From IMG/VR virus record IMGVR_UViG_3300037440_000124, positions 1 to 55,284 of that record: 55,284 nucleotides of DNA; one strand, given 5' to 3'. Below are positions 2,891 to 49,174 of the stretch, one piece after another. The DNA is from a virus. Taxonomy: Duplodnaviria; Caudoviricetes. Both the position numbers and the translations under genes were made by a program. Position 1 is the stretch's first letter; every line of letters starts with the position of its first letter. The notes beneath the pieces were generated by a model, which had not been told where the DNA came from, ran no database searches, and saw nothing but the letters and a program-made list of their open reading frames with translations.

Positions 2891-4872
2891 CGGCGCCCAC
2901 CGAAGCTTTTCTCAACGTCCTGTCTGGCCTTGGAAGCGGCCAGTTGTGTCACCGCTGCTAACTGCGCCTGCCACTGCGGAGGCAGACCTACCTGAACGTT
3001 AAACGTCTGCTGAATGACCGCACCACCAGCACCGTTCGGTACGATGTGACCTGACGAGCGCGGGACGAAAATCTCCTCATCAGGACGCACTAAGTACGGG
3101 GTTCCCGCTGTGACTGGACCTCCAGAATGCCTCGTCTCTGGCTTGAACAGTCCGCCAAAGAAGTTCAGGAACGGCTCTGTTATCAGCTTACGGATAGCGA
3201 GTCGCAGCAGATCCTTGTAAAGGCCGCGTAGAACGTCGGACAGCTTGTTACCCTCGACAATTGCATCCTCGAATGCGCTGGTAAACGTCAGTCCAAGATC
3301 GCGTGCTGCTTCTTCGGCCTTGCTGGCTTCTTCGTTCTTTGCCTCGTAAGCATCAGCCAGAGAACGAAGCTCCCTGCCGATCATCTCGTTGACCTTGGCC
3401 TCTTCTCGCCCGGCCTCAATCAGTCGTTCACGCAGTATCAGCGCACTTTGAACGGCTCGGTCGAATTCCTCACGAGGCGTACGATTACGTTCGATAAGCT
3501 GGTTGTAGCGCTCCATATCTGCCAGAAGAGGGTTAATCTTCTGAACGGATATTTCTATTTCTTCCAGCCCTGCGCTCAATGTGTCTTTTATGGAATCGCT
3601 GATGCGCTGGAATTCTTCCGGGCTTAGGTCGCTTTTGTATTTATTGAGTTCAGCGCGAAGTGCTGCCGCTTTTTGTTCAGCGGTTGCGAAGTTGTCTATA
3701 AACTTCTGGAAGCTCTCCTTGTGAGATTCGAAAAGAGTGTCAAGCTCGGAATTCGTCCTGTCGAAACTGCCGAAAACCTCGGCGGGATCACGACGTTCCG
3801 GCTCGCCGAGTCCAAACGACTGTTCCTGAAGTCGCTGGAACTTCGAAAGCTCGGCTTGCACTTCTGCAATGCGCGCCCGTATCTCGTCTGGATTCTCACC
3901 GAACAGCCATCCGCCAAACCCGCCTAGCTTGCTTTCTCGATGAGCAAGACGGGTCTGTAGCTGTTCCAACTCATCCCTGGCTTTAACAATCTCCTTTTCG
4001 AACGGGAATGGGTTGGCACCAAAGAAGGCAGCACCGAACGCCTGTGCAACAGCGGTTCCGCCCTTCGCCAGTGCGGTCAGATTGTCCAGCAACCCGCTTT
4101 CGGCAATAGCAACCTTCAGTTCGAAGATTGCTGTCGAAAATCGGTTGATCGATGCCTGCGCATCGTTAGCTGCTGCCGCGACCTCTGGACCGAAGGTCTT
4201 TGTCAGTTCCTTCGCCAGTGCCGGCAAAAGGTCCTCGGCCGTAAGTTCTCCGGCCTTGAGCATCTTGTCTAGTTCGGCGGTAGTGACGCCGATGGACCGT
4301 GCCGCAATCTGGAACGCACCAGGAAGGCGCTCGCCCAACTGGCCTCGAAGCTCCTCGGCCGAGACCTTGCCCTTCGAGATGATCTGCTCAATCGCAGTCA
4401 GGGCACCGCCTGTCTGTTCAGCAGTAAGACCGAGAACCCGTGCCGCCTGGCTGACACCGACGAAGATATCGCGGGATGCCTCACCAGCCAGAGTCGTTCC
4501 CTTAGCCGCAGCCGCGAGCTTCGCGTATGACCCAGCGGTACTTTCCAGGCTAAGCCCGAGGTCGTCCGCAGTCTTGCGAACGAACGCCATTTCGCGTTCA
4601 GATCCGACAGCACTACCGGTCGCAACCTTAAGCGCCCGTTCGAACTGCTGCATCTTGATCGCAGCGTCCGTCACAGATCCCACAAAGCGAGCAATCTCCC
4701 GAACACCAAGACCTATGCCAAACGCAGCAAAACCGGCCTTGATTAGCCCCAGCGACTTCTTGTTCTGCTTCTCGAACTTCTGCAGCTTCTTCTGTGCGCC
4801 CTCCAGTTCTCTCTGGTACTTGGCCGATTGCGCTTCTAGTAAAACTACATACCGAGAGAGAACGCTAGCCAC
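2887..4872 (-). CDS. Tail tape measure protein
   Basis: 661 aa, helical and Ala-rich, with QIISKGKVSAEELRGQLGERLPGA (tape-measure N-terminal domain) and C-terminal HSGGPV..G.PYLV. Confidence 0.93.
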   Translation of the reverse strand: MASVLSRYVVLLEAQSAKYQRELEGAQKKLQKFEKQNKKSLGLIKAGFAAFGIGLGVREIARFVGSVTDAAIKMQQFERALKVATGSAVGSEREMAFVRKTADDLGLSLESTAGSYAKLAAAAKGTTLAGEASRDIFVGVSQAARVLGLTAEQTGGALTAIEQIISKGKVSAEELRGQLGERLPGAFQIAARSIGVTTAELDKMLKAGELTAEDLLPALAKELTKTFGPEVAAAANDAQASINRFSTAIFELKVAIAESGLLDNLTALAKGGTAVAQAFGAAFFGANPFPFEKEIVKARDELEQLQTRLAHRESKLGGFGGWLFGENPDEIRARIAEVQAELSKFQRLQEQSFGLGEPERRDPAEVFGSFDRTNSELDTLFESHKESFQKFIDNFATAEQKAAALRAELNKYKSDLSPEEFQRISDSIKDTLSAGLEEIEISVQKINPLLADMERYNQLIERNRTPREEFDRAVQSALILRERLIEAGREEAKVNEMIGRELRSLADAYEAKNEEASKAEEAARDLGLTFTSAFEDAIVEGNKLSDVLRGLYKDLLRLAIRKLITEPFLNFFGGLFKPETRHSGGPVTAGTPYLVRPDEEIFVPRSSGHIVPNGAGGAVIQQTFNVQVGLPPQWQAQLAAVTQLAASKARQDVEKSFGGRR

Positions 4873-10297: not shown

Positions 10298-10760
10298 TGT
10301 AATCCCAGAGGTACGCGCGGAGATCCAGACGGGTGAATTCCTTGTTGCCGTCGTACCAGTCGAACTGTGTTGCTATCAGGTACCTCGACGATTTCCTGAA
10401 TAGCGCAAGCGCCGCCTCAATGCGCGGCGCATCAAGATGATTCAGTACGTGCCTGCACAACAGACCATCTGCTAGCGGCATGGCCTCGTTGGTAATATCG
10501 AGTTTGGTCACTGTTTCTGCTCTAGGAACCAGGTCGAACGGTCGATATTCGACATCCCACTTGATCTGTCGAATCCAGTTCATATCGCCAGCACCGGCGT
10601 CGTTAAGCGTCATAATTCCGTATCGCTTCACAACAGATGGAAGCCATCGGCGAATATTATCTGTGCTTCTCAGCGTTGAACCGTTACCGCAGATTGTTTC
10701 AGGTTTCCCTCCCCTCCAGCCTTTAGCCATGCGCTTAAGCATGGCTTCGTCAGACAACAT
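10239..10760 (-). CDS. Class I SAM-dependent methyltransferase-like protein
   Basis: CGNGST..LNDAGAGDMNW..DIT..LLCRHVLNHL motifs. Confidence 0.68.
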   Translation of the reverse strand: MLSDEAMLKRMAKGWRGGKPETICGNGSTLRSTDNIRRWLPSVVKRYGIMTLNDAGAGDMNWIRQIKWDVEYRPFDLVPRAETVTKLDITNEAMPLADGLLCRHVLNHLDAPRIEAALALFRKSSRYLIATQFDWYDGNKEFTRLDLRAYLWDYIESVNDGGADGCKLAIWSI

Positions 10761-11373
10761 CGGATATGTCCATCGACGGAATCACACCTTCAAGCGCGGA
10801 ATGCGGTGTCACACAAATCAATTCGACCAATCCCTGCTCATGTATCGACCGGTACAGTTCCACCAGTCCGATGTGTACGCCATGCCGTACTTGCACGCTG
10901 GGCCAATGTGCCATTTGTGGCGGATATTCGCCGAAAAAATGACGCGGCGTTGATCCAATTTGTCTAGACCGACCGTCGTAGTCAGATGCGAATTTCAGGT
11001 CGTAGCCCAACAGGAGAATGCTTTTTGCACCTGCTCGATATGCCATCGACACCAGCGAAAAACCTGATCCAAATCCGTGGTGAATCACGTCCGGGTCAGT
11101 CGACAGCCCCTTGGCATTCCGCTCAGCAATCCAGTTAATCCCGAATTCATCAGCCGCCTGTCTGTTAGTCGTCCACTTCTCTGCCGGCAAATCCTTAACT
11201 TGCGTCCAATAATGTGACCACCAGGAATAATTACATCCATATAACAGCGCTGCATCGGGTACCAGTTGAAAAGCGTTATTACACGCGAACAACAAAAAGC
11301 CGCGACTACGCGCGGCATCGATTTGTGCAACGGTCAGTGACGGACCAGTCGCAACACAACAGATAGTGATCAT
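10750..11373 (-). CDS. MptE/MAF-like, GT29-like fold protein
   Basis: VATGPSL..CNNA..SGFSLVSMAY..GAKSILLLGYD..HFFG motifs; paralog of 13485..14168. Confidence 0.6.
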   Translation of the reverse strand: MITICCVATGPSLTVAQIDAARSRGFLLFACNNAFQLVPDAALLYGCNYSWWSHYWTQVKDLPAEKWTTNRQAADEFGINWIAERNAKGLSTDPDVIHHGFGSGFSLVSMAYRAGAKSILLLGYDLKFASDYDGRSRQIGSTPRHFFGEYPPQMAHWPSVQVRHGVHIGLVELYRSIHEQGLVELICVTPHSALEGVIPSMDISDVV

Positions 11374-11555
11374 TCGTCCGGCGGCTTGCCGAGCTTGTTT
11401 ACCATGTAAAACAATTTGATAGCGCCTCTGGGAATCGAGCGTTCACCCGATTCCCAGCGCGCCCACGTTCTCGGAGTAACCTCCACCTGCCTGGCAGCAT
11501 CAGCAAGTGACAGGTTAAGCTCATAACGTAACTTTTTGAGTTCTTCGCCTTTCAT
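11370..11555 (-). CDS. Small XRE-type HTH regulator, similar to the Aca2 N-terminal HTH
   Basis: MKGEELKKLRYELNLSLADAARQVEVTPRTWARWESGERSIP; last gene of the Cas7-like cassette. Confidence 0.8.
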   Translation of the reverse strand: MKGEELKKLRYELNLSLADAARQVEVTPRTWARWESGERSIPRGAIKLFYMVNKLGKPPDE

Positions 11556-11965
11556 ACCTGCCAGACACTACCTAACCCCAACGACCCCGACTGACCCCGC
11601 CTGAACTGACCATGACACATCTTGTCTGCCGCGCCTTAGAGCACCCGACCTAACCTCACAGCGCCTTGCCAGACCGCGCCAAACCTAACCAAATCTGCCG
11701 CAAACTTACCGGACCTAACCGCTCCTAACCATTCCATACACCACCAAGCCGTGCCGGACCGCATCTGCCCCACCAGCACACATCAGACCTCGCCCGTCCA
11801 AAGATCACCCCACCAGATCAAACCATGTCTGCCGCACCGAACCCCTACGGAACGTACCCAACATTACCATCCATACCTCGACACGTCTGCCAAGTCTTAC
11901 CGCACCTAACCGTGCCTTTCCCAGCCACGCCTTGCCGGGCCTGACCATGCCATCCCATGTCTGCC
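11556..11965 (-). ncRNA. Non-coding guide-like array: six units of alternating GGY/NN (5-nt period) bounded by GGCAGAY motifs
   Basis: Boundary motifs begin (minus strand) at 11965, 11891, 11833, 11769, 11699, 11630 and 11562; by hand count 44 of 70 spacer triplets are exactly GGY; 11-14 variable dinucleotides per unit. Confidence 0.85.
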
Positions 11966-11968
11966 TTG

Positions 11969-12436
11969 TCATGCAGCCTTGCGTTTCTTTCGCGAAGCTG
12001 AATTCCGAACTTGACGTATCGCCAGAATAACCGGCTTTGCCATTTGCAAATGAGCGTATCTAGACTCAAGGCGACTGATAAGATCAAGAAACCGACCTTC
12101 GGCTGCCGTAACCTCGTCCTCGGTTGCCTTGAATAACGGCACGTACCTGCCGCGATCTGCCGATTGGATAAAGGCGTTGACCTCGATCACTTCGTTTTGC
12201 GCGTCTACAATCTCGACGTGCAATGATTGAACCATGACACGCGCCTGCACCATTCGAAACTGGTGCGCGGCCTCCGTGTCACTCCACTCGAAGATCGCGT
12301 GAGCCGGTGATCGAATCTTTCGCGCCTCTTTGATAATCCGCTCTGCGGACATATCCGGCAGTGACTCAAGCCATTCGCCGATAGCCTGAGCGTCGCCATT
12401 GAGGTGTCTGCGCCACTTATAGATTCGATTTTTCAA
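11969..12436 (-). CDS. Accessory protein of the Cas7-like cassette (conserved phage hypothetical)
   Basis: AERIIKEAR..SPAHAIFEWSDTEAAHQFR..QAR motif; TTG start with AGGGAGG RBS overlapping the upstream stop. Confidence 0.7.
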   Translation of the reverse strand: MKNRIYKWRRHLNGDAQAIGEWLESLPDMSAERIIKEARKIRSPAHAIFEWSDTEAAHQFRMVQARVMVQSLHVEIVDAQNEVIEVNAFIQSADRGRYVPLFKATEDEVTAAEGRFLDLISRLESRYAHLQMAKPVILAIRQVRNSASRKKRKAA

Positions 12437-13074
12437 GTGGCCTTCCTCCCTTTCTTCGGATTCTTGACGCACCACATCCCAAAGTCACCACCGAATGACT
12501 TGCGACCGAACGGACGAAGTTCGTCAACACCGATCTGTGTTCCGGCTCTCGCCAACAAATTCGCAACATCATTGGCGGATACAAGGTCAGCATCGAATTC
12601 AACTGCGATTTCGCAAGCCCAGGAATCGTATCTGGGACGATTCCTCAGATCCGTTACGCCAGACTCAAGCCTTACCGGACGGGTATCATGCACAGACTTA
12701 CCATGAATCCTTACCAGTGGCGTGCCATCCGTTACATCGAAGCCATCAGGCTTGATGAAGAATGCACCCTTGGCAACTGTCATCGGCAAGCCATCGACAT
12801 TCGAACAAGCACGAATCATCGCCGCTCGAATTGACAAGGCCGGAATACCTTCCCACTTCGCCGTGCTGATGTATTTCGCACCCAGATATTCTGCTTTGTA
12901 ATCCTTCGGTGCGCGCTTCTTCTTCGTTTTGCTCTCAGCCTGCTGCGTTTCCTCCATTTGCTTTCTGGATTTCTCAGAAAACTTATGAAGCATCAGCGGG
13001 CTAACGCCTTCCAGCCTGAGCTTGACTACCTGAAAGTTAGGCGGCTGGATTTCAATACGGGTTTTCTTAATCAT
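12433..13074 (-). CDS. Stand-alone Cas7/RAMP-like RNA-binding protein
   Basis: N-terminal beta strand LRLEGVSPLMLH; GIPALSIRAAM (cf. RAMP IPgSSlKGalR); C-terminal Gly-rich loop IGVDELRP..GGDFG; ATG at 13074 with GGAG RBS. Confidence 0.75.
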   Translation of the reverse strand: MIKKTRIEIQPPNFQVVKLRLEGVSPLMLHKFSEKSRKQMEETQQAESKTKKKRAPKDYKAEYLGAKYISTAKWEGIPALSIRAAMIRACSNVDGLPMTVAKGAFFIKPDGFDVTDGTPLVRIHGKSVHDTRPVRLESGVTDLRNRPRYDSWACEIAVEFDADLVSANDVANLLARAGTQIGVDELRPFGRKSFGGDFGMWCVKNPKKGRKAT

Positions 13075-13121
13075 CGGTCGATCTCCATACGCCACGACCC
13101 TACGCCATGGCTTCAACCCTA

Positions 13122-13150
13122 ACTATGACCAATGGTCAGAGCATAGTCAA
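13122..13150 (-). promoter_or_regulatory. Sigma70-like promoter with overlapping palindromic operator
   Basis: TTGACT-17 nt-CATAGT; inverted repeat TGACCA-A-TGGTCA at 13126-13138 and ACTATG..CATAGT at 13122-13147. Confidence 0.65.
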
Positions 13151-13156
13151 TATCTT

Positions 13157-13360
13157 TCACACAAATTCAGGCGGCTTCGGATACGGCTCGCGCAACTGAT
13201 AGGCTCGTCGCACCTTCAGATGCCAGTCACGCACCGCGGCGTCAATCTCCTCACCTTTCTTGGCGCACGGCTCGCACAGACCGCCACTAAAATGCGCCTC
13301 CTGAGACTCGATGGCTTTTTTCTGAGTCCCGCAACGATCGCAAACGTAAATAATAGCCAT
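13157..13360 (-). CDS. Small hypothetical zinc-binding protein
   Basis: CDRC and CEPC pairs; AGAGGA RBS. Confidence 0.55.
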   Translation of the reverse strand: MAIIYVCDRCGTQKKAIESQEAHFSGGLCEPCAKKGEEIDAAVRDWHLKVRRAYQLREPYPKPPEFV

Positions 13361-13372
13361 TGATAATCCTCT

Positions 13373-13564
13373 TTATCGCTTTCGTGCGGTCTTTTTCTTT
13401 ACCCCTTTCAGGGACAGAACCGGGAGACCCTTGTCCGCGTATCCCTCTCTGAGTGCCTTGCGGGCCATGCTTTCGGAAATCTGCTCAGGCACCTTGTACC
13501 TGCCCTTCGACAGAAAACCGCCCTGTATTGGCCAGTCTTGTGTCAGTTTTATGGTGTAACTCAT
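13373..13564 (-). CDS. Small basic hypothetical protein
   Basis: GAGGAG RBS before the ATG at 13564; overlaps the upstream gene. Confidence 0.45.
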   Translation of the reverse strand: MSYTIKLTQDWPIQGGFLSKGRYKVPEQISESMARKALREGYADKGLPVLSLKGVKKKTARKR

Positions 13565-14168
13565 GTTGCTCCTCGAGTGCCTGTTCAAAGGTCATCTTTG
13601 GAAAGCACTGCAACGCGCTGACAGGTGTGGCATTCACGATCCTGATATGCGCCGGCAGCTTTTTCGCCGCCACGTCAAAGTGCTTTGCAAATTCAGTGTA
13701 ACGAGTACCTGATTCTAATTCCCTCGGATACTCACCGAAGAAATGCGATTTCCCGCCGGTCTTCTGCATGTCGAAGCCGATCAGGATGATGTGCTCACAG
13801 CCGAACAGGATCGCCAGGTTGATCGCCTGAAATCCCGAGTTGCTGCCGTAGTTGATAACCGATGGATCAAGTGAAAACGTGGAACCATGAGCGCCTTGCA
13901 CACAATGCACTTTCCACTTCTCGTGTGCCTCTGTCTTGTCGTTCGATGAATATCTTCGACCTTCGTGGGTGCTCCACTTCTCACCATCGAACGCTCCATC
14001 GTGATACTTCCACCATCTCGGCTCACAGCCATACAGAACGTCCGCCCATGGGATCAAGCGATAGGCATCCTGTACAACAATGATCGGATGATGACGAACC
14101 GGTACCAAAGAAGGCCCCGGCGCGGCCACGATACATGACCGCCACCGGGGAGAAACAACCTCAAGCAC
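13485..14168 (-). CDS. MptE/MAF-like, GT29-like fold protein (paralog of 10750..11373)
   Basis: VAAPGPSL..NSGFQAINLAILFGCEHIILIGFD..HFFG..NATP.SAL. Confidence 0.6.
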   Translation of the reverse strand: MLEVVSPRWRSCIVAAPGPSLVPVRHHPIIVVQDAYRLIPWADVLYGCEPRWWKYHDGAFDGEKWSTHEGRRYSSNDKTEAHEKWKVHCVQGAHGSTFSLDPSVINYGSNSGFQAINLAILFGCEHIILIGFDMQKTGGKSHFFGEYPRELESGTRYTEFAKHFDVAAKKLPAHIRIVNATPVSALQCFPKMTFEQALEEQHELHHKTDTRLANTGRFSVEGQVQGA

Positions 14169-14171
14169 CGA

Positions 14172-15443
14172 TCAAGTATCGGCGAGTTTCAGTAGCTTCA
14201 AACTGTCATTATTAAGAACAGTTCCGCCGTAGCGCCGACGCACATAGAAGCGAACGTAACCAGGATTGGTCACGGACTCGCTCTGTATCATCAGTTCCGT
14301 ACGGCTGGTCAGCAGGTAAGCCCGTGCAAAATCACCGAAGGCAATAGCAAAGCCATCGCCCGTGGTGGGATTGCTCAGGTTCTCCCAGGTGAATACCTCG
14401 TAGCCCAACAGACGGTCAGGCTGGCCGACCTGCAGACTCGGTTGCCAGAGATACTGGCCGTTCGTGTCTTTCAGCTTCCGCATGAAGCCCTGCGTCACCG
14501 TGTTCATTGCGAACTTGGCGTTGCTTCGATAACGCGGGTTCAACGCATACACCAGGTCGATGACGTTATCCGCATTGATTGCCTGCGGAGAACTGGTGAC
14601 CGCGATGTACTCGTAAGCATCAGCATCACGAAGCGGAGATGCATGGTCATCGGTTGATACAGGCGCAGTATCGGTCATACCAGTCGGCTTGTCGGAACCG
14701 TCGCCGCTGTAGATCGCCAACGCCAGAGCATTCGACATGCCCTCCGAGATGTCGTTGACCAGCCAGTCCGATACATTGAACTGGATATCCTGGATCGACC
14801 ATTCGGAAACCTGCGGGTACGCATAAAGCTCGCCCCAGGTCGGCTTACGGCTCCTCAGGTTCGGCGTTCCGGTTGCAGACCTGGTACCGGCTTCCGCCAC
14901 CCACCCCGACGTTCCGCCATGAATCGACACCAGCTCCTGATAGTCGCTCGTGCCAACGCGAATGTTCTTCACGTTGTTCACGACCTGCGACAACTTCAGA
15001 AGCAGAGCATCGACCGAGGCACCGATTTCCTTCGGCAGGGCAAAACCACCGCCAGGGTTGCTTCCGATGGTCACGTCTTTCTGTGACAGATCGCGCAACT
15101 TGCCATTGATGGTGCTGTCCTGGAACCCGACACGCAGTCCCTTGAAGAACATGTCGTTGTATTCCTTACGAGCGATCTCCTCCGGTGTTCCGCGCGGACG
15201 GTCGGCAAGCGCTTCCAGCATCTCGATGCGCGCCTGTTTCTTCGCCTCTTCGGCCTCCATGGCCTTAAGCTTCGCCTGGGACGAGTCCAGATCCTTGCTG
15301 ATCTTCGTCAGCTTCTGCTCGAGTTCCTGAGTAAGGGTCTGATTGCCCTTCTCCATGGCCTCAAGGCGTTCGTCGTTGGTCTTCTGAAACTCGGTAACCG
15401 TCTCACCGAGCTTCTGCATCTCCTCTACAATGGGATTTCCCAT
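14172..15443 (-). CDS. Major capsid protein, HK97 family
   Basis: Coiled-coil delta domain; GGFALP, GDGSDKPTG, LKDTNGQYLWQP, LLGYEV, FGDF motifs. Confidence 0.96.
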   Translation of the reverse strand: MGNPIVEEMQKLGETVTEFQKTNDERLEAMEKGNQTLTQELEQKLTKISKDLDSSQAKLKAMEAEEAKKQARIEMLEALADRPRGTPEEIARKEYNDMFFKGLRVGFQDSTINGKLRDLSQKDVTIGSNPGGGFALPKEIGASVDALLLKLSQVVNNVKNIRVGTSDYQELVSIHGGTSGWVAEAGTRSATGTPNLRSRKPTWGELYAYPQVSEWSIQDIQFNVSDWLVNDISEGMSNALALAIYSGDGSDKPTGMTDTAPVSTDDHASPLRDADAYEYIAVTSSPQAINADNVIDLVYALNPRYRSNAKFAMNTVTQGFMRKLKDTNGQYLWQPSLQVGQPDRLLGYEVFTWENLSNPTTGDGFAIAFGDFARAYLLTSRTELMIQSESVTNPGYVRFYVRRRYGGTVLNNDSLKLLKLADT

Positions 15444-27585: not shown

Positions 27586-30215
27586 CCGGTCGACCCTGCC
27601 GTCGACACGGCGCAATGCGTGGCCCTTGAGTATTCCAGCAACTGTTCTACCGTGACCGTCGATTCGGGTGGCAATGCTGGCTTACCTGTTCCGCAACTGT
27701 CCTCTATGAACGGATCGCACGGGCCATTGTTCGCAACACTCGGATAGCCGATGTCGGAGGCCGGTCCAATACTTGCGCCAATCGGTGTCGCACTGTCGTA
27801 GCGGTTCGCGAGCTGATCGCAAATATCCTGGTAAACCGAAAGACGACCAGCAGATGGGCGTGGCCCTGACTGCGCACAAGCCAGCTCGACGGCAAATGCT
27901 CTTTCTCCCGCATCACCAGCACCAATCGGAGTAGAGACGTAGCCGGTCGCCTGCGCGCCACTTATCGCGGTTCCAACAAACGTGACATCCCCGCCGGAGT
28001 TATCCGCCGTAAGGCCAGCCTGTGTTGAGTCGTCCCAACCGAGAGCGCGGTTGCCTACCCGCGCAATAGTCACCGGATCAGAGATTGTGTCCGTGCTCAA
28101 CGGAATGCGCATCGGCAGTCCAGACACCCCGTTGGCACCTGAAATGAACAGGTTGTCCAGCAGATTTATTACAATGCCTGGCTCGCTTATGTTGTTTATC
28201 TGCAGCCAGTTATTCGTGCCGTTGTAGCAAACGTTATTCGAAAACGTGCCGCTCATTTCCTCCCACTTCGGACATCTACCTTGAAAATGCGCTGCAACAT
28301 TGCGCGCAACTGTCGCGCCCTGACTGCTGCCATCCAGGTACCCGAAAAAGTAGATCTCGGGGTTCTCGCCGCTTCCTGGTACATCGGTCGGGTATATGGT
28401 CATACCCTGGACGTACGACACGTTGTCTGCGTTCTTCCAGATATTCGCCCCGCTGTCGAGATTGAACACTGAGCCGTAATTCAAATTAACGACACTGTCT
28501 GTGCTGTCGTTATTGGCTCCGGTCTGAAGACATGCAGACAATGCCTCGACATCGGAATCGGCAAAGCAACTGTAGTGCATCCACAACTGACGATTAGCAC
28601 CGCTTTGCGTGACCTTCAAACCGCGCATGTGCATACCAGGATTCGGAGCTACCTGCATCAACACGATAAGGTTCGAGCAGCTCACACCCTTAAAACTGTT
28701 CATCGCGTATGTCACCCAACCTGAAATGGTGGGCATGACCGCGCGTAGATTCCCGGTGCAATTACTGACCGCCGCATCGAACGAACCGGCGCCGCTCGTA
28801 TTGCGGTTGGTGATGAAGCGATATTCGATATCCGGGTCGGTATCGAGAAACGAATCCCAGTCCGCACCGTGCACACAAAAGCCCGTCAGGATGGAGTCAC
28901 ATACCCCCATCGAAGTCCATGCCGCGCCGGCTGCATCCTGATCCAGAATCGTGACGGTGGCGGTTGCGTCGTCCAGGTTGTCGCTGGCGCAAGTGTCTTT
29001 GGTCAGAACCGCCGTGAACTGCTTATTGCCCTGTGCCGTGCCATTCCTGTCAATGATCGTGACGTTGAACGTCTTGTCACCGATCTCGGAATCTGTCCAG
29101 CTCAGCGTACCGCTGGTGTCGGTATAATCGGTTCCGGCAAGTGCCGAACCGTCGTTGACCACGTAGTCCAGAGAACAAGCGCCGTTGCCGTCTCCAGTAC
29201 GACTGACCGTCAGCGTAACCGGCGTCGATTCCTCACTGATCTGGTACGCAGTCGGATTGAATCCCACATCGCCCGGTGTGTGCGTCACCGAGGCCGTGCT
29301 GACCGTTACCTGGTCGTACGTGGTGGTTGCGTTTTTGGCGATGGCCCCTGTCTGAGACGGGGACGTGGCCAGCAGCACATAGCCGGTCCACGCATTGAAA
29401 AACTGGTGAACCTCCGTGTACGTGCCGGTCGAGCAGTCGGCGGCGGACGCTTTTATCAGCAACTTAGTGCTTGGTATATCGTCGTCACGCTCGATTCTGA
29501 AGCAGACCGGAAGAGTTACATCAACGCCATCGAAATATGCTGTCGAGGTTGCACCGTCCGTTGCCGACCGACAGTCCACCAGCGTTCCGTTATGAGCGAA
29601 CACCGCCAACATGCAATGCGCGGAACCTGAGCCAAGCGACTCACGGATCATGATCCCGCCCTTGGACAGCACCACTTCCTGAGAGGCAGTGACGATCTCA
29701 GCCGTCAGCGTGAAATCGCCGGTCGCCGGTACCGTGTAGTAATAGGCGGCAAACGAATCGTCTGTGCTGTATATCTCTCCGCCGTTTGCACCGACCGTGA
29801 AAATCGGGTCCGTGTACGACAGCACACTCGAGGCGAGCGCGTGAACGGAACCGTCAATCTGGACCTCAGCCCAGCCGGCCGGTGGCGCTCCCGGCTCTCC
29901 CGGGTCTGGTTCGCCAACGTCAGGAATGAACGGGAACATTTGCGCCCGTGCATCGCCGCTGATGCTGATGCCGATGCGGTAACTGACGACTACTTCATAC
30001 TGAGCGTCTGGATCGTCTCGACCGGCCGCGTTCAGGCAATCGGCGATCGCGTTCTTTTCAAGCGTGCTGGCCCTACCAACAGCAACATCTACACCGTCCA
30101 CCACCTTGACACATTGGTGTACCGCAGCCCCTCCTATGCGTGGGAAGTTCACTTCCGCATGAATCGGCACCACGAACGGGAACAGCAGGACGGCGAGGAG
30201 TAGGCGCTTTAACAT
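27579..30215 (-). CDS. Large signal-peptide protein: lectin-like (DUF1349-like) + Calx-beta + pectate-lyase-like beta-helix
   Basis: MLKRLLLAVLLFPFVVPIHA; GDFTLTAEI..KGGIMIRESL; VTLTVSRTG..DGSALAGTDY..SGTLSW (Calx-beta); TNRNTSGAGSF..QVAPNPG (PL1-like). Confidence 0.72.
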   Translation of the reverse strand: MLKRLLLAVLLFPFVVPIHAEVNFPRIGGAAVHQCVKVVDGVDVAVGRASTLEKNAIADCLNAAGRDDPDAQYEVVVSYRIGISISGDARAQMFPFIPDVGEPDPGEPGAPPAGWAEVQIDGSVHALASSVLSYTDPIFTVGANGGEIYSTDDSFAAYYYTVPATGDFTLTAEIVTASQEVVLSKGGIMIRESLGSGSAHCMLAVFAHNGTLVDCRSATDGATSTAYFDGVDVTLPVCFRIERDDDIPSTKLLIKASAADCSTGTYTEVHQFFNAWTGYVLLATSPSQTGAIAKNATTTYDQVTVSTASVTHTPGDVGFNPTAYQISEESTPVTLTVSRTGDGNGACSLDYVVNDGSALAGTDYTDTSGTLSWTDSEIGDKTFNVTIIDRNGTAQGNKQFTAVLTKDTCASDNLDDATATVTILDQDAAGAAWTSMGVCDSILTGFCVHGADWDSFLDTDPDIEYRFITNRNTSGAGSFDAAVSNCTGNLRAVMPTISGWVTYAMNSFKGVSCSNLIVLMQVAPNPGMHMRGLKVTQSGANRQLWMHYSCFADSDVEALSACLQTGANNDSTDSVVNLNYGSVFNLDSGANIWKNADNVSYVQGMTIYPTDVPGSGENPEIYFFGYLDGSSQGATVARNVAAHFQGRCPKWEEMSGTFSNNVCYNGTNNWLQINNISEPGIVINLLDNLFISGANGVSGLPMRIPLSTDTISDPVTIARVGNRALGWDDSTQAGLTADNSGGDVTFVGTAISGAQATGYVSTPIGAGDAGERAFAVELACAQSGPRPSAGRLSVYQDICDQLANRYDSATPIGASIGPASDIGYPSVANNGPCDPFIEDSCGTGKPALPPESTVTVEQLLEYSRATHCAVSTAGSTGC

Positions 30216-35600: not shown

Positions 35601-36137
35601 TCATGCGGGGCGCTCGACGTGCTTCCACTTCTTGCCGGTAAGTATGTCGCTCACGTGCTGCTGACAGACCAACACTAGGTGGCCAGCTATTTTCCGCTGA
35701 CTACACCCGCTGCGGTGCAGGTCGAAGATACGCTCAACATCTGTGACATTTAGCTTAGATTGACCATTCCTCTCTCCACGAGCTTTTGTGCCGTGAATCT
35801 CACTGTCTTTGGCATTCGCTTGTCGCGTATCCCACCGTAGATTATTTAATTGATTGTTTGCAGGATTGCGGTCAGGAAAGTGACACGCTTCCATCTCATC
35901 GGGTCTCGGGCCAACAAAGGCTTCGAGGACGAGATGGTGTACATAGCGGTTACGCGGAACACCATTGTGAAGGACAACGAGAAGATGGCCGCGTTTGTTT
36001 CTCTTACCCGGCCTGAGCATGCAACCTTTGATTCGGTTTCCCCACGAGTTCTTGCGATCTAGACTACGCACGCGCCCGTGGTCGGAGACCTCGTAGATGC
36101 CCTCGTAGCCCACAACCGGCTTCCAGCGCTCGGTCAT
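35601..36137 (-). CDS. NUMOD4-HNH homing endonuclease
   Basis: ERWKPVVGYEGIYEVSDHGRVRS (NUMOD4); VHHLVLEAFVGP..CH..N..NNLRW (HNH). Confidence 0.9.
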   Translation of the reverse strand: MTERWKPVVGYEGIYEVSDHGRVRSLDRKNSWGNRIKGCMLRPGKRNKRGHLLVVLHNGVPRNRYVHHLVLEAFVGPRPDEMEACHFPDRNPANNQLNNLRWDTRQANAKDSEIHGTKARGERNGQSKLNVTDVERIFDLHRSGCSQRKIAGHLVLVCQQHVSDILTGKKWKHVERPA

Positions 36138-37901: not shown

Positions 37902-37943
37902 CCGCCCTACCCGCCCCTGCCGGGGCTAAATATTTCTCCGAGT

Positions 37944-37992
37944 GAGTACTTTGGTACTTGACATTGTGCCCATGGCGAGTATTCTTGTGCTC
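37944..37992 (+). promoter_or_regulatory. Early promoter (TTGACA-16 nt-TATTCT) with two further operator palindromes
   Basis: GAGTA-CTTTGG-TACTT at 37944-37959 and GAGTA-TTCTTG-TGCTC at 37977-37992. Confidence 0.65.
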
Positions 37993-39103
37993 AGGCCAGC
38001 AGCCCAACAGGGTCAACAAATGAAACCCCAGCCCACCCCCACCCACAACCCCGTCACCTGCCCGAAGTGCGGCGCCCCGATCCCGGTTCGTAAACCTCGC
38101 GGGACGGTGTTCAAGATCCGGCGGGCTCGGGCACTGGCACGGCATAACTATGAGGCGCATCGATGAACGACAACACCCCGAAGCGGATAAGGACGCTGGC
38201 CGAACTGGATGGCCTGTCAATCAAGGATGCGGCGAGGATTCCTCACCCTGTCGATCTGGGCAAGTGGACCGGCCGTTATTGGATTGACGTAGACCTCGGT
38301 GTCTTTCGCGTCAAGGATGAATGGCGACGGGCGACGAGCGAGCATCAGTCATGACCTTCCAACATCCCCTCGCCATGATCGCCCTAAAGATCACCAGCGA
38401 CCGCAACGTCATCGACTTCACGCCGCACCTGCGCCGGAAGCGATTGGAGAATTCGCGGCTGGTACGGAAGTCGATCGATCAGATTATAGCGGAAGCGGAT
38501 GACGCGATGCTGGCATTGAGAGAACGCAATGACCGTCGGTGAATGGTTCGCCTTGCTCTGGTTGGCCATCGTTTTGCTAGTGATCGGCCCGCTGACTGCG
38601 GAGTTCATAGGCTGGTGTATCCGGCATTGGCGGACCGCGATTCGACATTTAAAGGAACAGAAATGAGCGATCAAATCGACACCGAAGAACTGAAACGAGA
38701 CGCGATGCAAAGTGCGCGCGGCCTGTCGCTGGTGTTCTGGCTGGCGGTGATCTGCTACGGGTCGATGTTTGGGATTATCGCGGCGAGGGTGTGGTGATGA
38801 ACGAAAAGACCTGTGACAAGCCAGCAACCCATCGCTTTACGTGGCCCGGAAATGACGAGAGTTTCATCTGCGAGGACCATCTGCCGAAGCTGAAGGCGGT
38901 AGCGCAGGCGCTCGGCTTGCACCTGCAGACCATTGCAGTGCCGGACGGAGACGAGCAGACATGCCGTCAGCGGGAGCCGAAATGAACGAACCAGACTTCA
39001 TCACCGGAATGATGCTCTTGATCGGCTATCTAGGGCTCGTCTGTGGGGCGCTAGGGCTAGGTGGATTAGTGCTCAAGTTCTTCCTAGGGCGGGACGTTTA
39101 ATT

Positions 39104-41653: not shown

Positions 41654-42111
41654 GCCGAGAAAAGTTCATGCTCCGCGTCCAGAAAGGATCACTGATCCCG
41701 GCAGACGGATCTACGCAGCAGCGAATGCGCGAGAAAGGCTATGTGCTGGACGACGTGCTGGCCGCGACGCTGACGAAGCCGCGGAACCCAGCATTCAACA
41801 GACTGGTCCATGCCTTCGGCCAGATCGTCTCGGAGAACATCGAAGCCTTCGAAGGACTGGATGCGCACAAAGTACTTAAGCGGCTGCAAATAGAAGCCAA
41901 CATCGGCTGCGATGAAGTGCCGTTGAACTTCCCAGGAATCGGACCATGCACCTACCGGGTACCTCGGTCGCTGTCGTTCGTCAGCATGGACGATGGAGAG
42001 TTTAAGGAAGTGTTCCAGGCCATGTGTACGCACGTTGCCAAGACGTATTGGCAGGACCTGACCGCGGAGCAGATCGAGGAAATGGCGCAGATCATGGCGG
42101 ATGCGGTATGA
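41650..42111 (+). CDS. Hypothetical protein (DUF1367/NinB-like)
   Basis: KPRNPAFNR..PRSLSF.SMD..EF pattern. Confidence 0.55.
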   Translation: MSREKFMLRVQKGSLIPADGSTQQRMREKGYVLDDVLAATLTKPRNPAFNRLVHAFGQIVSENIEAFEGLDAHKVLKRLQIEANIGCDEVPLNFPGIGPCTYRVPRSLSFVSMDDGEFKEVFQAMCTHVAKTYWQDLTAEQIEEMAQIMADAV

Positions 42112-42416
42112 ATCTTCGAGCACATGCACGTGGCAAGCCATGCATGATACGTGTGCCAATGTACTGTAACGGCAACCCGGAGACTACGGTCCTCGCCCAC
42201 GACAACACACCCGGAACTTCCGGCATGGGCATGAAATGCCATGACGTACAGGCGGCCTGGTCCTGTTCTACCTGCCACGACGTCATCGACGGCCGTATCA
42301 AGACGCACTACACCAAGACGGAACGTCGGGTCATGTTCCTCGAGGGGATGGTCCGCACTCAGTACGCGCTGATCCGGGAAGGGATTTTGCAGATAGCCAG
42401 AAAGGCAGTCGCGTGA
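42108..42416 (+). CDS. DUF1364 (YbcO-like) nuclease-domain protein
   Basis: ARGKPCMIRVP..CNGNPETTVLAH..GMGMK..AWSCSTCHDVIDGR. Confidence 0.85.
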   Translation: MNLRAHARGKPCMIRVPMYCNGNPETTVLAHDNTPGTSGMGMKCHDVQAAWSCSTCHDVIDGRIKTHYTKTERRVMFLEGMVRTQYALIREGILQIARKAVA

Positions 42417-48345: not shown

Positions 48346-48600
48346 TTATTCCAGCACCCTAACCGCCTCCAACCTCCCGTTGACCGTCTCGAGTGCCGCC
48401 CTGTCGATGCTCCACAGGTGTATTGCCTGACCATACGTCAGCCCTTCCGGAATTTCGGCAGGCGCTTCCGTAACCAGCAGATCGGCGGGGACAGGTATCC
48501 TTTCAAACCGGACAACCTCGACAGGGACGGGGACCTCGACGAGCGTTTCATGAGCGCAGGCCCCAGAAAGGATTGGTATAATAAGCAATAGACATTTCAT
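48346..48600 (-). CDS. o-spanin (Rz1-like lipoprotein)
   Basis: Lipobox LSGAC; Pro-rich VPVPV..PVPADLL; C-terminal NGRLEAVR. Confidence 0.75.
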   Translation of the reverse strand: MKCLLLIIPILSGACAHETLVEVPVPVEVVRFERIPVPADLLVTEAPAEIPEGLTYGQAIHLWSIDRAALETVNGRLEAVRVLE

Positions 48601-49174
48601 GGAACATCCAATGATTTGTGATGCCTGCAAAAAAGAATCGCCTCGATTGATCAATGAGAGTCTGTGCCGCGCGTGCAATTTACGCTTGTCTCGAAAAGGC
48701 ACTACCGATTACGCTAGGTTTGGATCTCCTATCGGAGGTATCACAGTCGAAAGACGTTTCTTTGATAAAGTCAAGAAAACCGACAATTGCTGGATATGGA
48801 CTGCTTCCGTCAATAAGCAGGGGTACGGCGCATTATCTATTGGTAAAAAACAGATCAGGGCCCACCGAGTGTCATACATGTTATTCAAAGGACAAATCCC
48901 GGATGGGATGCATGTATGTCATTCTTGCGACAATCCATCGTGTGTCAATCCAGATCATCTATGGATTGGCACTCCCAAGGATAATGCCAAAGATTGTTTG
49001 ATGAAAAATCGCTTCCCGATTGGCCAAAGAGCCGGGCGCGCAAAGCTAACAGAACATGAAGTGATTATGATAAGGCGCGCTACCATAGTCGGTAAAGCAA
49101 TAGCGAAAAAGTACAACATAAGCTTAGAACAGGTGTACAACATACGGCAGCGTCGTAGCTGGAAACACGTCTAG
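48599..49174 (+). CDS. HNH homing endonuclease inserted between the spanin genes
   Basis: CWIWT..GYG..RAHRVSY..VCHSCDNPSCVNPDHL..GT..DN. Confidence 0.9.
   Translation: MEHPMICDACKKESPRLINESLCRACNLRLSRKGTTDYARFGSPIGGITVERRFFDKVKKTDNCWIWTASVNKQGYGALSIGKKQIRAHRVSYMLFKGQIPDGMHVCHSCDNPSCVNPDHLWIGTPKDNAKDCLMKNRFPIGQRAGRAKLTEHEVIMIRRATIVGKAIAKKYNISLEQVYNIRQRRSWKHV

Follow-up and report, generated by a model that had tools for sequence, protein, structure and literature searches.

VIPR (Viral Interference Programmable Repeat) systems were described in 2026 in bioRxiv preprints, the available text of which reports tests on a pair of closely related type II systems and sorts 667 systems into seven types (10.64898/2026.04.26.720920). 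For the SUSP1-type system the same text describes RNA-guided transcriptional silencing without a nuclease, shown experimentally (10.64898/2026.04.26.720920). Here we analysed a phage genome of 55,284 nucleotides (IMG/VR record IMGVR_UViG_3300037440_000124, taken as a whole and called the window below) with a locus that resembles the type II VIPR of Escherichia phage SUSP1 (KT454805; PDB 36pp). Both have a small stand-alone phage RAMP protein, with vipr, an accessory gene and an array on one strand, and both build their guides from pentamers of GG-pyrimidine and two variable bases (NN). An arginine in the thumb, an arginine in the G-loop and a histidine in beta1 are conserved between the two proteins, and the targets of both are read with a one-base skip that falls on the wobble position. 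The two loci differ in that the accessory protein here is unrelated to vap1 of SUSP1 and in that a conserved HTH gene lies past the end of the array. SUSP1 guides have a form of about 100 nt with a structured pseudoknot tail, whereas the guides here are 58-74 nt long, lack such a tail and abut at GGCAG junctions, where the register shifts by one base. Finally the SUSP1 target is the recombinase of a satellite, whereas the inferred targets here are capsid and PHROG-4603 genes of other phages.

A closer likeness in guide architecture is found in the VIPR "staggered arrays with overlapping vrRNAs", which, in the available text, have units without spacer or tail and a shift of one base per junction as here; the legend of fig. 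S18 describes neighbouring vrRNAs that arise from positions overlapping by one nucleotide (10.64898/2026.04.26.720920). Further away are the Cas7 backbones and Csm3/Cmr4 of type III CRISPR systems, with which the protein shares an RRM core, a thumb hairpin and a Gly-rich loop. Unlike in Cas7 systems there is here no CRISPR array, no Cas10, Cas5, Cas6 or Cas11 partner and, in the genome, no other Cas family; each protomer corresponds to a repeat unit of 5 nt, as against 6 nt in the Cas7 backbone, and the inferred target is double-stranded DNA read with gaps. Type IV and dCas-style CRISPRi would be alike by function only, as RNA-guided repression of a competing mobile element without cutting, and differ in guide architecture, in recognition code and in that the present system is encoded by a phage.

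The 213-aa ORF that the preliminary description had singled out as a Cas7/RAMP-like protein exists and lies on the minus strand (Table 1), while the plus strand across 12433-13074 is interrupted by stops. Its ATG is preceded by GGAG at 9 nt, and the locus is embedded in the structural module of the phage, among phage structural genes. Promoter-like sites in the region are not more numerous in a consensus scan than in shuffled sequences, so that position alone favours the site upstream of vipr listed in Table 1. The stretch is present in two DNA runs, both from sediment metagenomes and one of them perhaps where it came from, and no RNA run is listed as containing it.

Table 1. Features of the VIPR locus and homologous sites elsewhere in the window
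Feature	Position	Strand	Basis or remark
vipr (213-aa stand-alone RAMP / Vipr protein)	12433..13074	minus	ORF and translation, PHROG 4652, Vipr homology, RAMP fold
Candidate vap (vipr accessory protein), 155 aa	11969..12436	minus	TTG start, predicted coupling to vipr
Array, six GGCAGA-delimited units of YNNGG pentamers	11965-11563	minus	
u1	11892..11965	minus	GGCAGA and 14 pentamers, 13 with GG end
u2	11834..11891	minus	11 NN dinucleotides; one repeat only 4 nt
u3	11770..11833	minus	12 pentamers, several degenerate
u4	11700..11769	minus	13 NN dinucleotides; one repeat of 6 nt
u5	11631..11699	minus	13 pentamers
u6	11563..11630	minus	Degenerate, register shift
HTH (Xre-type) gene, 61 aa	11370..11555	minus	Pfam HTH_31, E 6.5e-9
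Promoter-like site TTGACT-17-CATAGT, upstream of vipr	13122..13150	minus	Consensus scan
Own capsid-gene site homologous to u4 target (KPTWGELYAYPQ)	14811..14846	minus	17/24 NN bases, <80%
Own PHROG-4603 paralogue site homologous to u2 target (VELICVTPHSA)	10795..10827	minus	15/22 NN bases

The AlphaFold2 model of the 213-aa protein (pLDDT 94.6, pTM 0.88) shows, with high confidence, a minimal RAMP fold with RRM core, thumb and Gly-rich loop. All four motifs quoted in the preliminary description occur in the translation and fall in the model on the RAMP elements to which they had been assigned: LRLEGVSPL (residues 19-27) on the predicted beta1 strand (14-23), GIPALSIRAAM (76-86) on a predicted helix (79-92), DTRPVRLESGVTDLRNRP (130-147) on the predicted beta-hairpin of the thumb (127-135/141-149) and IGVDELRPFGRKSFGGDFG (181-199) on the Gly-rich loop (182-200) that comes after helix 167-181. 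A Foldseek search with the model gave 59 PDB matches at E ≤ 0.001, the top rows being all Csm, Cmr or type VII complexes and the best matches Csm3 chains (E 5.7e-6). With VIA-align the best match was to Csm3/Cas7 (Z 10.6, rmsd 4.0, 148 aligned residues, 7% identity); 23 chains reached a Z of at least 8 and rows 1-29 were all CRISPR RAMP entries. The RAMP assignment made from the letters alone was thereby borne out by both structure comparisons.

Sequence comparison links the protein to a characterised Vipr. The PDB chain 36pp_D, "SUSP1 Vipr protein", was matched by a profile of 86 family sequences with E 4.6e-9, by the single sequence with E 0.015 and in hhalign with 97% and E 9.3e-11. The similarity spans some 50-60 C-terminal residues (the C-terminal third) together with a weak match in beta1. 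In SUSP1 the GGY bases are contacted, according to the available text, by H17, R138, D177, W178 and R179 (10.64898/2026.04.26.720927), which align here with H30, R146, E185, L186 and R187, respectively. H30, R146 and R187 are kept and two of the five contact residues differ (D>E and W>L), the latter with loss of the stacking aromatic. In the family alignment R187 is invariant and R146 at least 90% conserved. By these alignments we judge the 213-aa protein to be a homologue of an experimentally characterised Vipr. The protein matches PHROG 4652 (E 8.6e-21), and homologues at E ≤ 0.001 comprised 238 of 397 candidates in a word-indexed search and 2756 cluster representatives in an exhaustive one, a conservation that is evidently far above chance. 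Pfam, NCBIfam and PADLOC assigned the Vipr protein to no family, even at E ≤ 1, and no relative of it was found in species-representative genomes (alignment A2 query).

The absence of other cas genes, claimed earlier, held as far as it was tested: the Pfam scan of 83 ORFs, PADLOC on the Vipr protein and a tandem-repeat scan gave no sign of them. The Pfam scan found no Cas family at E ≤ 1e-5 in the 83 ORFs of the 55-kb phage genome; this set omitted the vipr and accessory ORFs, which were scanned separately. The tandem-repeat scan detected neither CRISPR-like repeats nor a repeat-spacer array, and Rfam over 11000-13500 returned a single match, to msiK, at E 0.13 and under its threshold.

The gene that follows vipr, our candidate vap, begins with a TTG that shares bases with the stop codon of vipr (cTTGA) and has GGGAGG in front of it, an arrangement by which it is predicted to be translationally coupled to vipr. 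It stands after vipr in 10 related loci, and its close homologues are 152-155 aa long. We found no similarity to vap1 of SUSP1 and, in Pfam, no nuclease or helicase family; the PHROG match was to PHROG 15946 alone, of unknown function, and the Atlas neighbours were unnamed viral proteins. A profile search of the PDB gave coiled-coil noise only. The model of the protein has a pLDDT of 75 and no match in Foldseek at E ≤ 0.001, and its best VIA-align hit (Z 6.9) covers only a C-terminal helical hairpin and is non-specific.

A guide array, of which the preliminary description had named none in the window beyond the words "array RNA" in its suggested check, lies about 470 bases downstream of vipr and begins on the same strand four bases past the end of the 155-aa gene. 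Six GGCAGA junctions, spaced at 74, 58, 64, 70 and 69 nt, delimit its units, and u1 contains a run of 12 perfect pentamers. When both strands of the window were scanned for 60-nt frames with at least 7 of 12 GG in phase, 41 of the 44 frames found were minus-strand frames within 11673-11984. Another period-5 blip, at 38081-38091 (minus), reached 7/12 only and lies in G-rich sequence opposite a plus-strand ORF; it was taken as chance. Applied to 50 kb of SUSP1, the scan gave a signal at the published VIPR locus only. Compared with the arrays of its relatives, that of the window is the more degenerate: many pentamers end in GT or GA and not in GG, and u2, u4 and u6 have length irregularities of one base. 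Directly past its last GGCAGG begins the HTH gene, a homologue of which adjoins the array in related loci as well.

A period-5 array on the same strand is present downstream of vipr in 12 of 14 related loci, and on the opposite strand in none of the 14; in one of the two loci without array the sequence ends at vipr and in the other only about 500 bases follow it. In these loci 62 of 89 GGCAG-delimited units are 4 mod 5 in length. The 610 pentamers of such units have C or T at position 1 (97%) and G at positions 4 (95%) and 5 (80%), and are near-uniform at positions 2-3 in the clade logo. Cultured mycobacteriophages carry the same protein and array, part of the array being annotated there as a protein gene; in Mycobacterium smegmatis phages of the Donkeykong group this is gene 48.

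To find what the guides could recognize we read them by the published one-base-skip rule, for which the published match cut-off is 80%, and searched for matches that were exact or had at most 3 mismatches. The rule is proven for type II only; here it is the matches themselves that justify applying it. For u4 the pattern specifies 22 bases, and it had 4 exact matches in IMG/VR and 2 in species-representative genomes, both alphaproteobacterial MAGs. With the 13th dinucleotide added, 5 loci agreed at 26/26 bases and 1 locus at 25/26. All u4 matches are in frame, on the sense strand, in the APTFGMIYAYPKA motif of major capsid genes. The u2 pattern had 13 exact matches, all in viral contigs and all in frame in the VEIINCTPGSA motif of a PHROG-4603-like gene, and the matched contigs include VIPR-less kin of the carrier phage. 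In both targets, 33 bp long for u2 and 39 bp for u4, the skipped base is the wobble position of the codon. We propose from these matches that u4 is probably directed at the major capsid gene in alphaproteobacterial phages and prophages and u2 at the PHROG-4603 gene. The matches of a given guide all lie in homologous genes, so that each guide amounts to roughly one independent event. The reversed u4 pattern had no match. At up to 3 mismatches u4 matched 1 of 401 genomes of the class, the one already known, and reversed controls none; shuffled NN orders reached at most 17-18/24 in the target loci. Genes for vipr, vap and the HTH protein were absent from the retrieved parts of all 19 target loci.

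The two matched guides are 2 of the 6 in the array. Guide u1 had no target in viral contigs, in metagenome contigs or, at up to 3 mismatches, in 3 target-bearing genomes; u3 had none in viral contigs or 5 records and u5 none in viral contigs, metagenome contigs or 5 records. Unit u6 was scored against the retrieved loci only. Within the window and the related vipr-bearing loci no guide match rose above shuffled controls at skips of 0 to 3. When 56 clean guides from relatives, Cy-LDV1 and Ecliptus were compared with the retrieved sequences, 4 matches of at least 85% were obtained and 1 with reversed controls, a comparison that is uninformative. The carrier has homologous sites of its own for both targets (Table 1), which are diverged at the amino-acid level, and the best match anywhere in its genome is 16/22 for u2 and 18/26 for u4, both <80%. 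Its own capsid and PHROG-4603 sites are thus, as judged by this cut-off, not targets, which points to an absence of self-targeting.

Directly seen in the analysis are the modelled fold of the protein, its homology with a Vipr of solved structure, the array with its code and the exact, code-conforming matches of u2 and u4, and the array downstream of vipr settles the function to our mind. We consider it very probable that the ORF encodes the Vipr protein of a VIPR system of the staggered-array kind which acts by silencing. A silencing role without nuclease had been suggested in the preliminary description, and the homology to SUSP1 Vipr, from a family with experimentally shown silencing, lends it support by analogy. 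The cassette on the minus strand runs from vipr through the coupled 155-aa accessory gene and the six guides to the HTH gene, and array RNAs would be produced and processed at the GGCAG junctions. By analogy with SUSP1 the Vipr protomers would then polymerise on each guide, one per pentamer, gripping the conserved GG-Y bases and leaving the two variable bases exposed. The exposed dinucleotides may pair with double-stranded DNA, skipping every third base of the target, and the bound filament may obstruct transcription. In this way the complex would bind and silence competitors in co-infection or in lysogens.

The silencing reading has to be weighed against the possibility that the VIPR system damages or destroys its target, with the 155-aa accessory protein or a host factor as effector. 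The accessory gene is conserved and coupled to vipr, its product has a model at pLDDT 75 with non-specific helical-hairpin matches only, and VIPR types III-V have predicted nucleases or helicases in the available text (10.64898/2026.04.26.720920). Yet no nuclease or helicase family of Pfam was found in the accessory protein, and its PHROG match is of unknown function. Moreover the nuclease-bearing types are, in the text available, tied to host defence islands (10.64898/2026.04.26.720920), whereas the present locus lies in a phage structural module. We regard target damage as unlikely.

We also think it very unlikely that the locus is what is left of a VIPR system in decay or already inactive, with an intact protein, an array that no longer yields functional guides and matches that date from past activity. 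Many pentamers do lack the second G, three units are irregular in length and three of the five searched guides are without a detectable target. But u2 and u4 are among the most irregular units and keep their NN register in full over 22 and 26 bases, which argues for selection on the code; vipr and vap are intact and coupled, and natural vrRNAs are often internally degenerate according to the available text (10.64898/2026.04.26.720920). The preliminary description had also raised an anti-CRISPR decoy. In that case a Cas7 mimic would poison the assembly of host Cascade or Csm or sequester host crRNA, and the GG-rich region would be incidental. Cas-derived inhibitors occur in phages and the fold is Cas7/Csm3-like. 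This proposal is nevertheless unsupported, as the protein is accompanied by a guide array of its own for which targets can be identified in rival phages, two guides matching rival phage genes exactly. The protein is homologous to a Vipr for which binding of its own guide RNAs has been shown, a code-conforming array stands beside the gene in those 12 of 14 related loci, and no host CRISPR repeat-like sequence is involved; the decoy seems to us extremely improbable.

Beyond the single locus, a wider proposal seems to us evenly balanced between being right and wrong: that the clade with PHROG 4652 proteins, in which GGCAG-delimited guides abut, the accessory protein has no recognisable fold and an HTH gene is linked to the locus, would form a VIPR subtype that silences late structural operons of co-infecting phages, including VIPR-less sisters, at protein-constrained motifs that have diverged in the carrier. 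Cultured phages of Mycobacterium, of Gordonia and of cyanobacteria would then also contain this subtype without its having been annotated, and its guides would tolerate units of 4 or 6 nt and YNNGN pentamers without loss of register.

Little has been documented of the staggered-array form, and the locus offers a well-delimited natural case of it, with two guide targets that can be named and in a phage genome that is complete at 55 kb. If the targets are as proposed, the published range of VIPR targets, a satellite recombinase and regulators of lysis and lysogeny, would come to include a major capsid gene and also a gene found in sister phages that lack VIPR. Irregular guides with a perfect target register bear on how strict the five-base repeat has to be, and hence on reprogramming, and the cultured mycobacteriophages with the same protein and array provide tractable hosts in which these ideas may be tested.

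The 213-amino-acid ORF put forward in the preliminary description is real, lying on the minus strand (stop codons interrupt the plus strand there), and the four sequence elements quoted for it are all present (residues 19-27, 76-86, 130-147 and 181-199). Pfam, NCBIfam and PADLOC assigned no family to the protein and its PHROGs match was family 4652, of unknown function (E 8.6e-21). In a word-indexed search 238 of the 397 candidates reached E <= 0.001, and none of the 120 relatives listed carried a Pfam domain; an exhaustive search returned 2756 representatives at E <= 0.001, of which 1451 pass E <= 1e-10 and 136 pass E <= 1e-30. Using an alignment of 86 sequences (A1) as input, AlphaFold2 produced a confident model (mean pLDDT 94.6, pTM 0.88). 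In it residues 14-23 form a strand, 79-92 and 167-181 are helical, 127-149 fold into a beta-hairpin, and 182-200 make up a long Gly-rich loop. A Foldseek search of the PDB with this model listed 59 matches (E <= 0.001), headed by chains of Csm3, Cmr and type VII Cas7 (best match 6xn3_F, E 5.7e-6, TM 0.40/0.41). Upon comparison with 48,161 representative chains by VIA-align, 23 chains reached Z >= 8 and rows 1-29 were CRISPR RAMP entries without exception, led by 9g9a_D (Z 10.6, rmsd 4.0, 148 aligned residues, 7% identity). Since RAMP chains top both lists, the RAMP fold proposed earlier is correct, the model and both structural searches agreeing on RRM/RAMP rather than another fold.

The sequence itself leads to a protein of phage SUSP1. 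Searched alone against PDB chains, it had one weak match, 36pp_D, "SUSP1 Vipr protein" (E 0.015), which the family profile matched at E 4.6e-9, and hhalign against the SUSP1 gene product reached a probability of 97% (E 9.3e-11) across 58 columns at the C-terminus only. Passages of three 2026 bioRxiv preprints (10.64898/2026.04.26.720920, 10.64898/2026.04.26.720927 and 10.64898/2026.10.15.759431) describe VIPR (Viral Interference Programmable Repeat) systems, carried mostly by phages and prophages, in which the minimal RAMP protein Vipr adjoins an accessory gene (vap) and RNAs of 9-16 YNNGG repeats. According to these descriptions Vipr forms a polymer along the RNA, one protomer to each repeat, hiding the GG-Y bases and presenting the variable NN dinucleotides, which pair with dsDNA with one target base skipped between dinucleotides; the demonstrated outcome is transcriptional repression. 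The GGY-holding residues described for SUSP1 Vipr, H17, R138, D177, W178 and R179 (10.64898/2026.04.26.720927), align with H30, R146, E185, L186 and R187 of the window protein. Within A1, R187 never varies and conservation of R146 is 90% or higher.

Coordinates of the VIPR locus and of other features in the window
Feature	Position	Strand	Remark
71-aa ORF	13373-13588	-	5' of vipr
67-aa ORF	13157-13360	-	5' of vipr
Promoter-like site	13150-13122	-	upstream of vipr; regional frequency of such sites not above shuffles
vipr	13074-12433	-	213 aa
Accessory gene (candidate vap)	12436-11969	-	155 aa
GGCAGA motifs (n = 6)	11965, 11891, 11833, 11769, 11699, 11630	-	spacing 74, 58, 64, 70 and 69 nt
Guide unit u2	11891-11834	-	contains 4-nt unit ATGG
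Guide unit u4	11769-11700	-	contains 6-nt unit TTGCGG
HTH gene	11555-11370	-	Xre-type, 61 aa
HNH homing-endonuclease-like gene	35601-36137	-	NUMOD4+HNH_3; not adjoining VIPR locus
YbcO-like nuclease gene	42024-42416	+	not adjoining VIPR locus
HNH homing-endonuclease-like gene	48599-49174	+	HNH_3; not adjoining VIPR locus

A GG-rich stretch begins 4 bases past the stop of the accessory gene, on the same strand, where each GGCAGA motif is followed by a run of NNNGG pentamers, the first unit holding 12 perfect pentamers in series. We scanned both strands by counting in-phase GG per 60-nt frame with a threshold of 7/12. Among the 44 frames that reached it, 41 lie at 11673-11984 (minus strand). The other three, at 38081-38091 (minus strand), fall within G-rich sequence facing a 74-aa ORF on the plus strand (37942-38166), and their 7/12 in-phase GG probably arose by chance rather than marking a solo guide. 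As a positive control, the same scan over 50 kb of SUSP1 marked only its VIPR locus (27614-27974 and 29160-29239), next to two genes at 28031-29061.

The array is conserved with the protein: a period-5 array lies 3' of vipr on the same strand in 12 of 14 related loci from IMG/VR (53-65% protein identity) and on the opposite strand in none, while the two loci without an array lack downstream room, one record stopping at vipr (L008) and the other about 500 bases beyond (L014). Splitting the window array, together with 11 arrays of 10 related loci, at GGCAG gave 89 units. In 62 of them the length is 4 mod 5, made up of whole pentamers and a junction of four bases, so that the register slips by one base per junction. 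Across the 610 pentamers in these units the first base is a pyrimidine (C or T) in 97%, the next two positions are near-uniform, and G stands at position 4 in 95% and at position 5 in 80%. Judged by composition, this is the published VIPR code. The abutting, register-shifted layout fits the staggered arrays described in the text and the legend of fig. S18 of one preprint (10.64898/2026.04.26.720920); a further preprint recovers VIPR arrays by periodicity. The array of one relative (L003, 4110-4750) is strongly degenerate, with many pentamers ending in GT or TT but with GGCAG junctions and flanking genes kept, and may be decaying or may follow a variant repeat consensus.

Matches to Vipr were found in 30 cultured-phage records (27 from Mycobacterium phages, 2 from Gordonia phages and 1 from a cyanophage), each carrying a hypothetical-protein annotation. 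Mycobacterium phage Donkeykong (NC_051648) has a clean GGC-NN pentamer array with GGCAGGC junctions at locus positions 2000-2345, directly upstream of its Vipr homologue (gene 49). As the array overlaps gene 48 ("hypothetical protein"), that annotation probably does not mark a protein gene. Period-5 GG arrays with GGCAGG junctions also occur in unannotated gaps right past the Vipr homologues of Cyanophage Cy-LDV1 (locus positions 3129-3315 and 3926-4059) and Gordonia phage Ecliptus (locus positions 3123-3339). The word "mycobacteriophage" is absent from the main text of the three 2026 VIPR preprints.

To find targets we scanned public collections for exact matches to the published form, dinucleotides separated by one wildcard, using five guides (u1-u5). 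The first 11 dinucleotides of u4 (22 specified bases) had four exact matches in IMG/VR, and the reversed pattern had none in the same collection; two further exact matches came from species-representative genomes, MAGs labelled Stappiaceae bacterium and Neomegalonema sp. All six lie in HK97-type major capsid genes, on the sense strand and in frame at the motif APTFGMIYAYPKA, with every skipped base at a wobble position. Including the 12th and 13th dinucleotides, the latter after a one-base insertion in the guide, 26/26 bases match in five loci and 25/26 in one. The 11 dinucleotides of u2, read through its four-base unit, had 13 exact matches in IMG/VR, all of which fall in frame on the motif VEIINCTPGSA, close to the 3' end of a PHROG family 4603 gene (annotated alpha-2,3-sialyltransferase, with a weak Pfam match to MptE-like). 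Despite the irregular units and several u2 and u4 pentamers ending in GT instead of GG, the NN register against the targets is perfect over 22 bases (u2) and 26 bases (u4).

Could such matches arise by chance? The matches of each guide are homologous genes, so that a guide amounts to roughly one independent event. Among 401 genomes from the class that includes the Stappiaceae MAG, u4 with up to three mismatches allowed matched that MAG alone, and reversed controls matched none; shuffled dinucleotide orders reached at best 17-18/24 in the target loci. Chance does not plausibly account for two of five searched guides each matching exactly and codon-phased at one conserved motif. No target was found for u1, u3 and u5 by exact or <= 3-mismatch searches, and the true competitors may be absent from the databases. 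The MAG matches suggest Alphaproteobacteria as hosts of the rivals and therefore, possibly, of this phage too.

The phage's own genome matches u2 and u4 less well. Its capsid protein is 35% identical to a target capsid and the site homologous to the u4 target, KPTWGELYAYPQ, matches at 17/24 bases; its two PHROG-4603 paralogues match u2 at 15/22 and 13/22, and the best matches anywhere in the genome (u2 16/22, u4 18/26) likewise fall below the 80% target-match cut-off of the preprint (10.64898/2026.04.26.720920). The vipr, accessory and HTH genes are encoded in none of the 19 target loci, in the parts fetched. Three u2 targets (L028, L033 and L035) are kin of the window phage, with portal proteins 57-58% and capsids 43-53% identical. 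In these kin the PHROG-4603 paralogues lie side by side (5762-6977 in L028), whereas in the window (10750-14168) they are parted by 2.1 kb, which holds the VIPR cassette (vipr, accessory gene, array and HTH gene) together with the two small ORFs. The VIPR cassette thus looks like an insertion between the paralogues, the likely insertion site, and one of its guides, u2, looks aimed at uninterrupted relatives. The viral record is complete at 55,284 bases, with direct terminal repeats. The 67-aa and 71-aa ORFs have no family match in Pfam or PHROGs and are missing between the PHROG-4603 gene and vipr in relative L001; the former carries a CxxC...CxxC pattern, zinc-ribbon-like by eye.

The accessory gene starts at a TTG overlapping the vipr stop (cTTGA), with GGGAGG ahead, and follows vipr in 10 aligned related loci, close homologues of its product having 152-155 aa. 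The protein has no Pfam family, matches just one PHROG, whose function is unknown, and shows no similarity to SUSP1 vap1 (hhalign 0.1%). Its model reaches middling confidence (pLDDT 75), structural matches are confined to the C-terminal helical hairpin, and its Atlas neighbours are viral proteins without names; it might provide an extra activity beyond guide-directed binding. The HTH gene (HTH_31, E 6.5e-9) starts directly past the final GGCAGG and in related loci adjoins the array, mostly after it (before it in L007). Terminator-like hairpins lie 3' of the arrays in L001 and L007, on the same strand.

Taken together the RAMP fold, the homology to SUSP1 Vipr, the array and the targets identify the locus as a VIPR system, bearing out the main reading of the preliminary description, a stand-alone Cas7/RAMP-like protein in a phage with no other cas genes. 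As the kind was already described in 2026, it is not a new class, and its action after binding would be that of type II VIPR systems. The value of the locus lies in its named natural targets, in staggered, irregular guides that retain register, and in the tie to cultured phages with the same protein and array.
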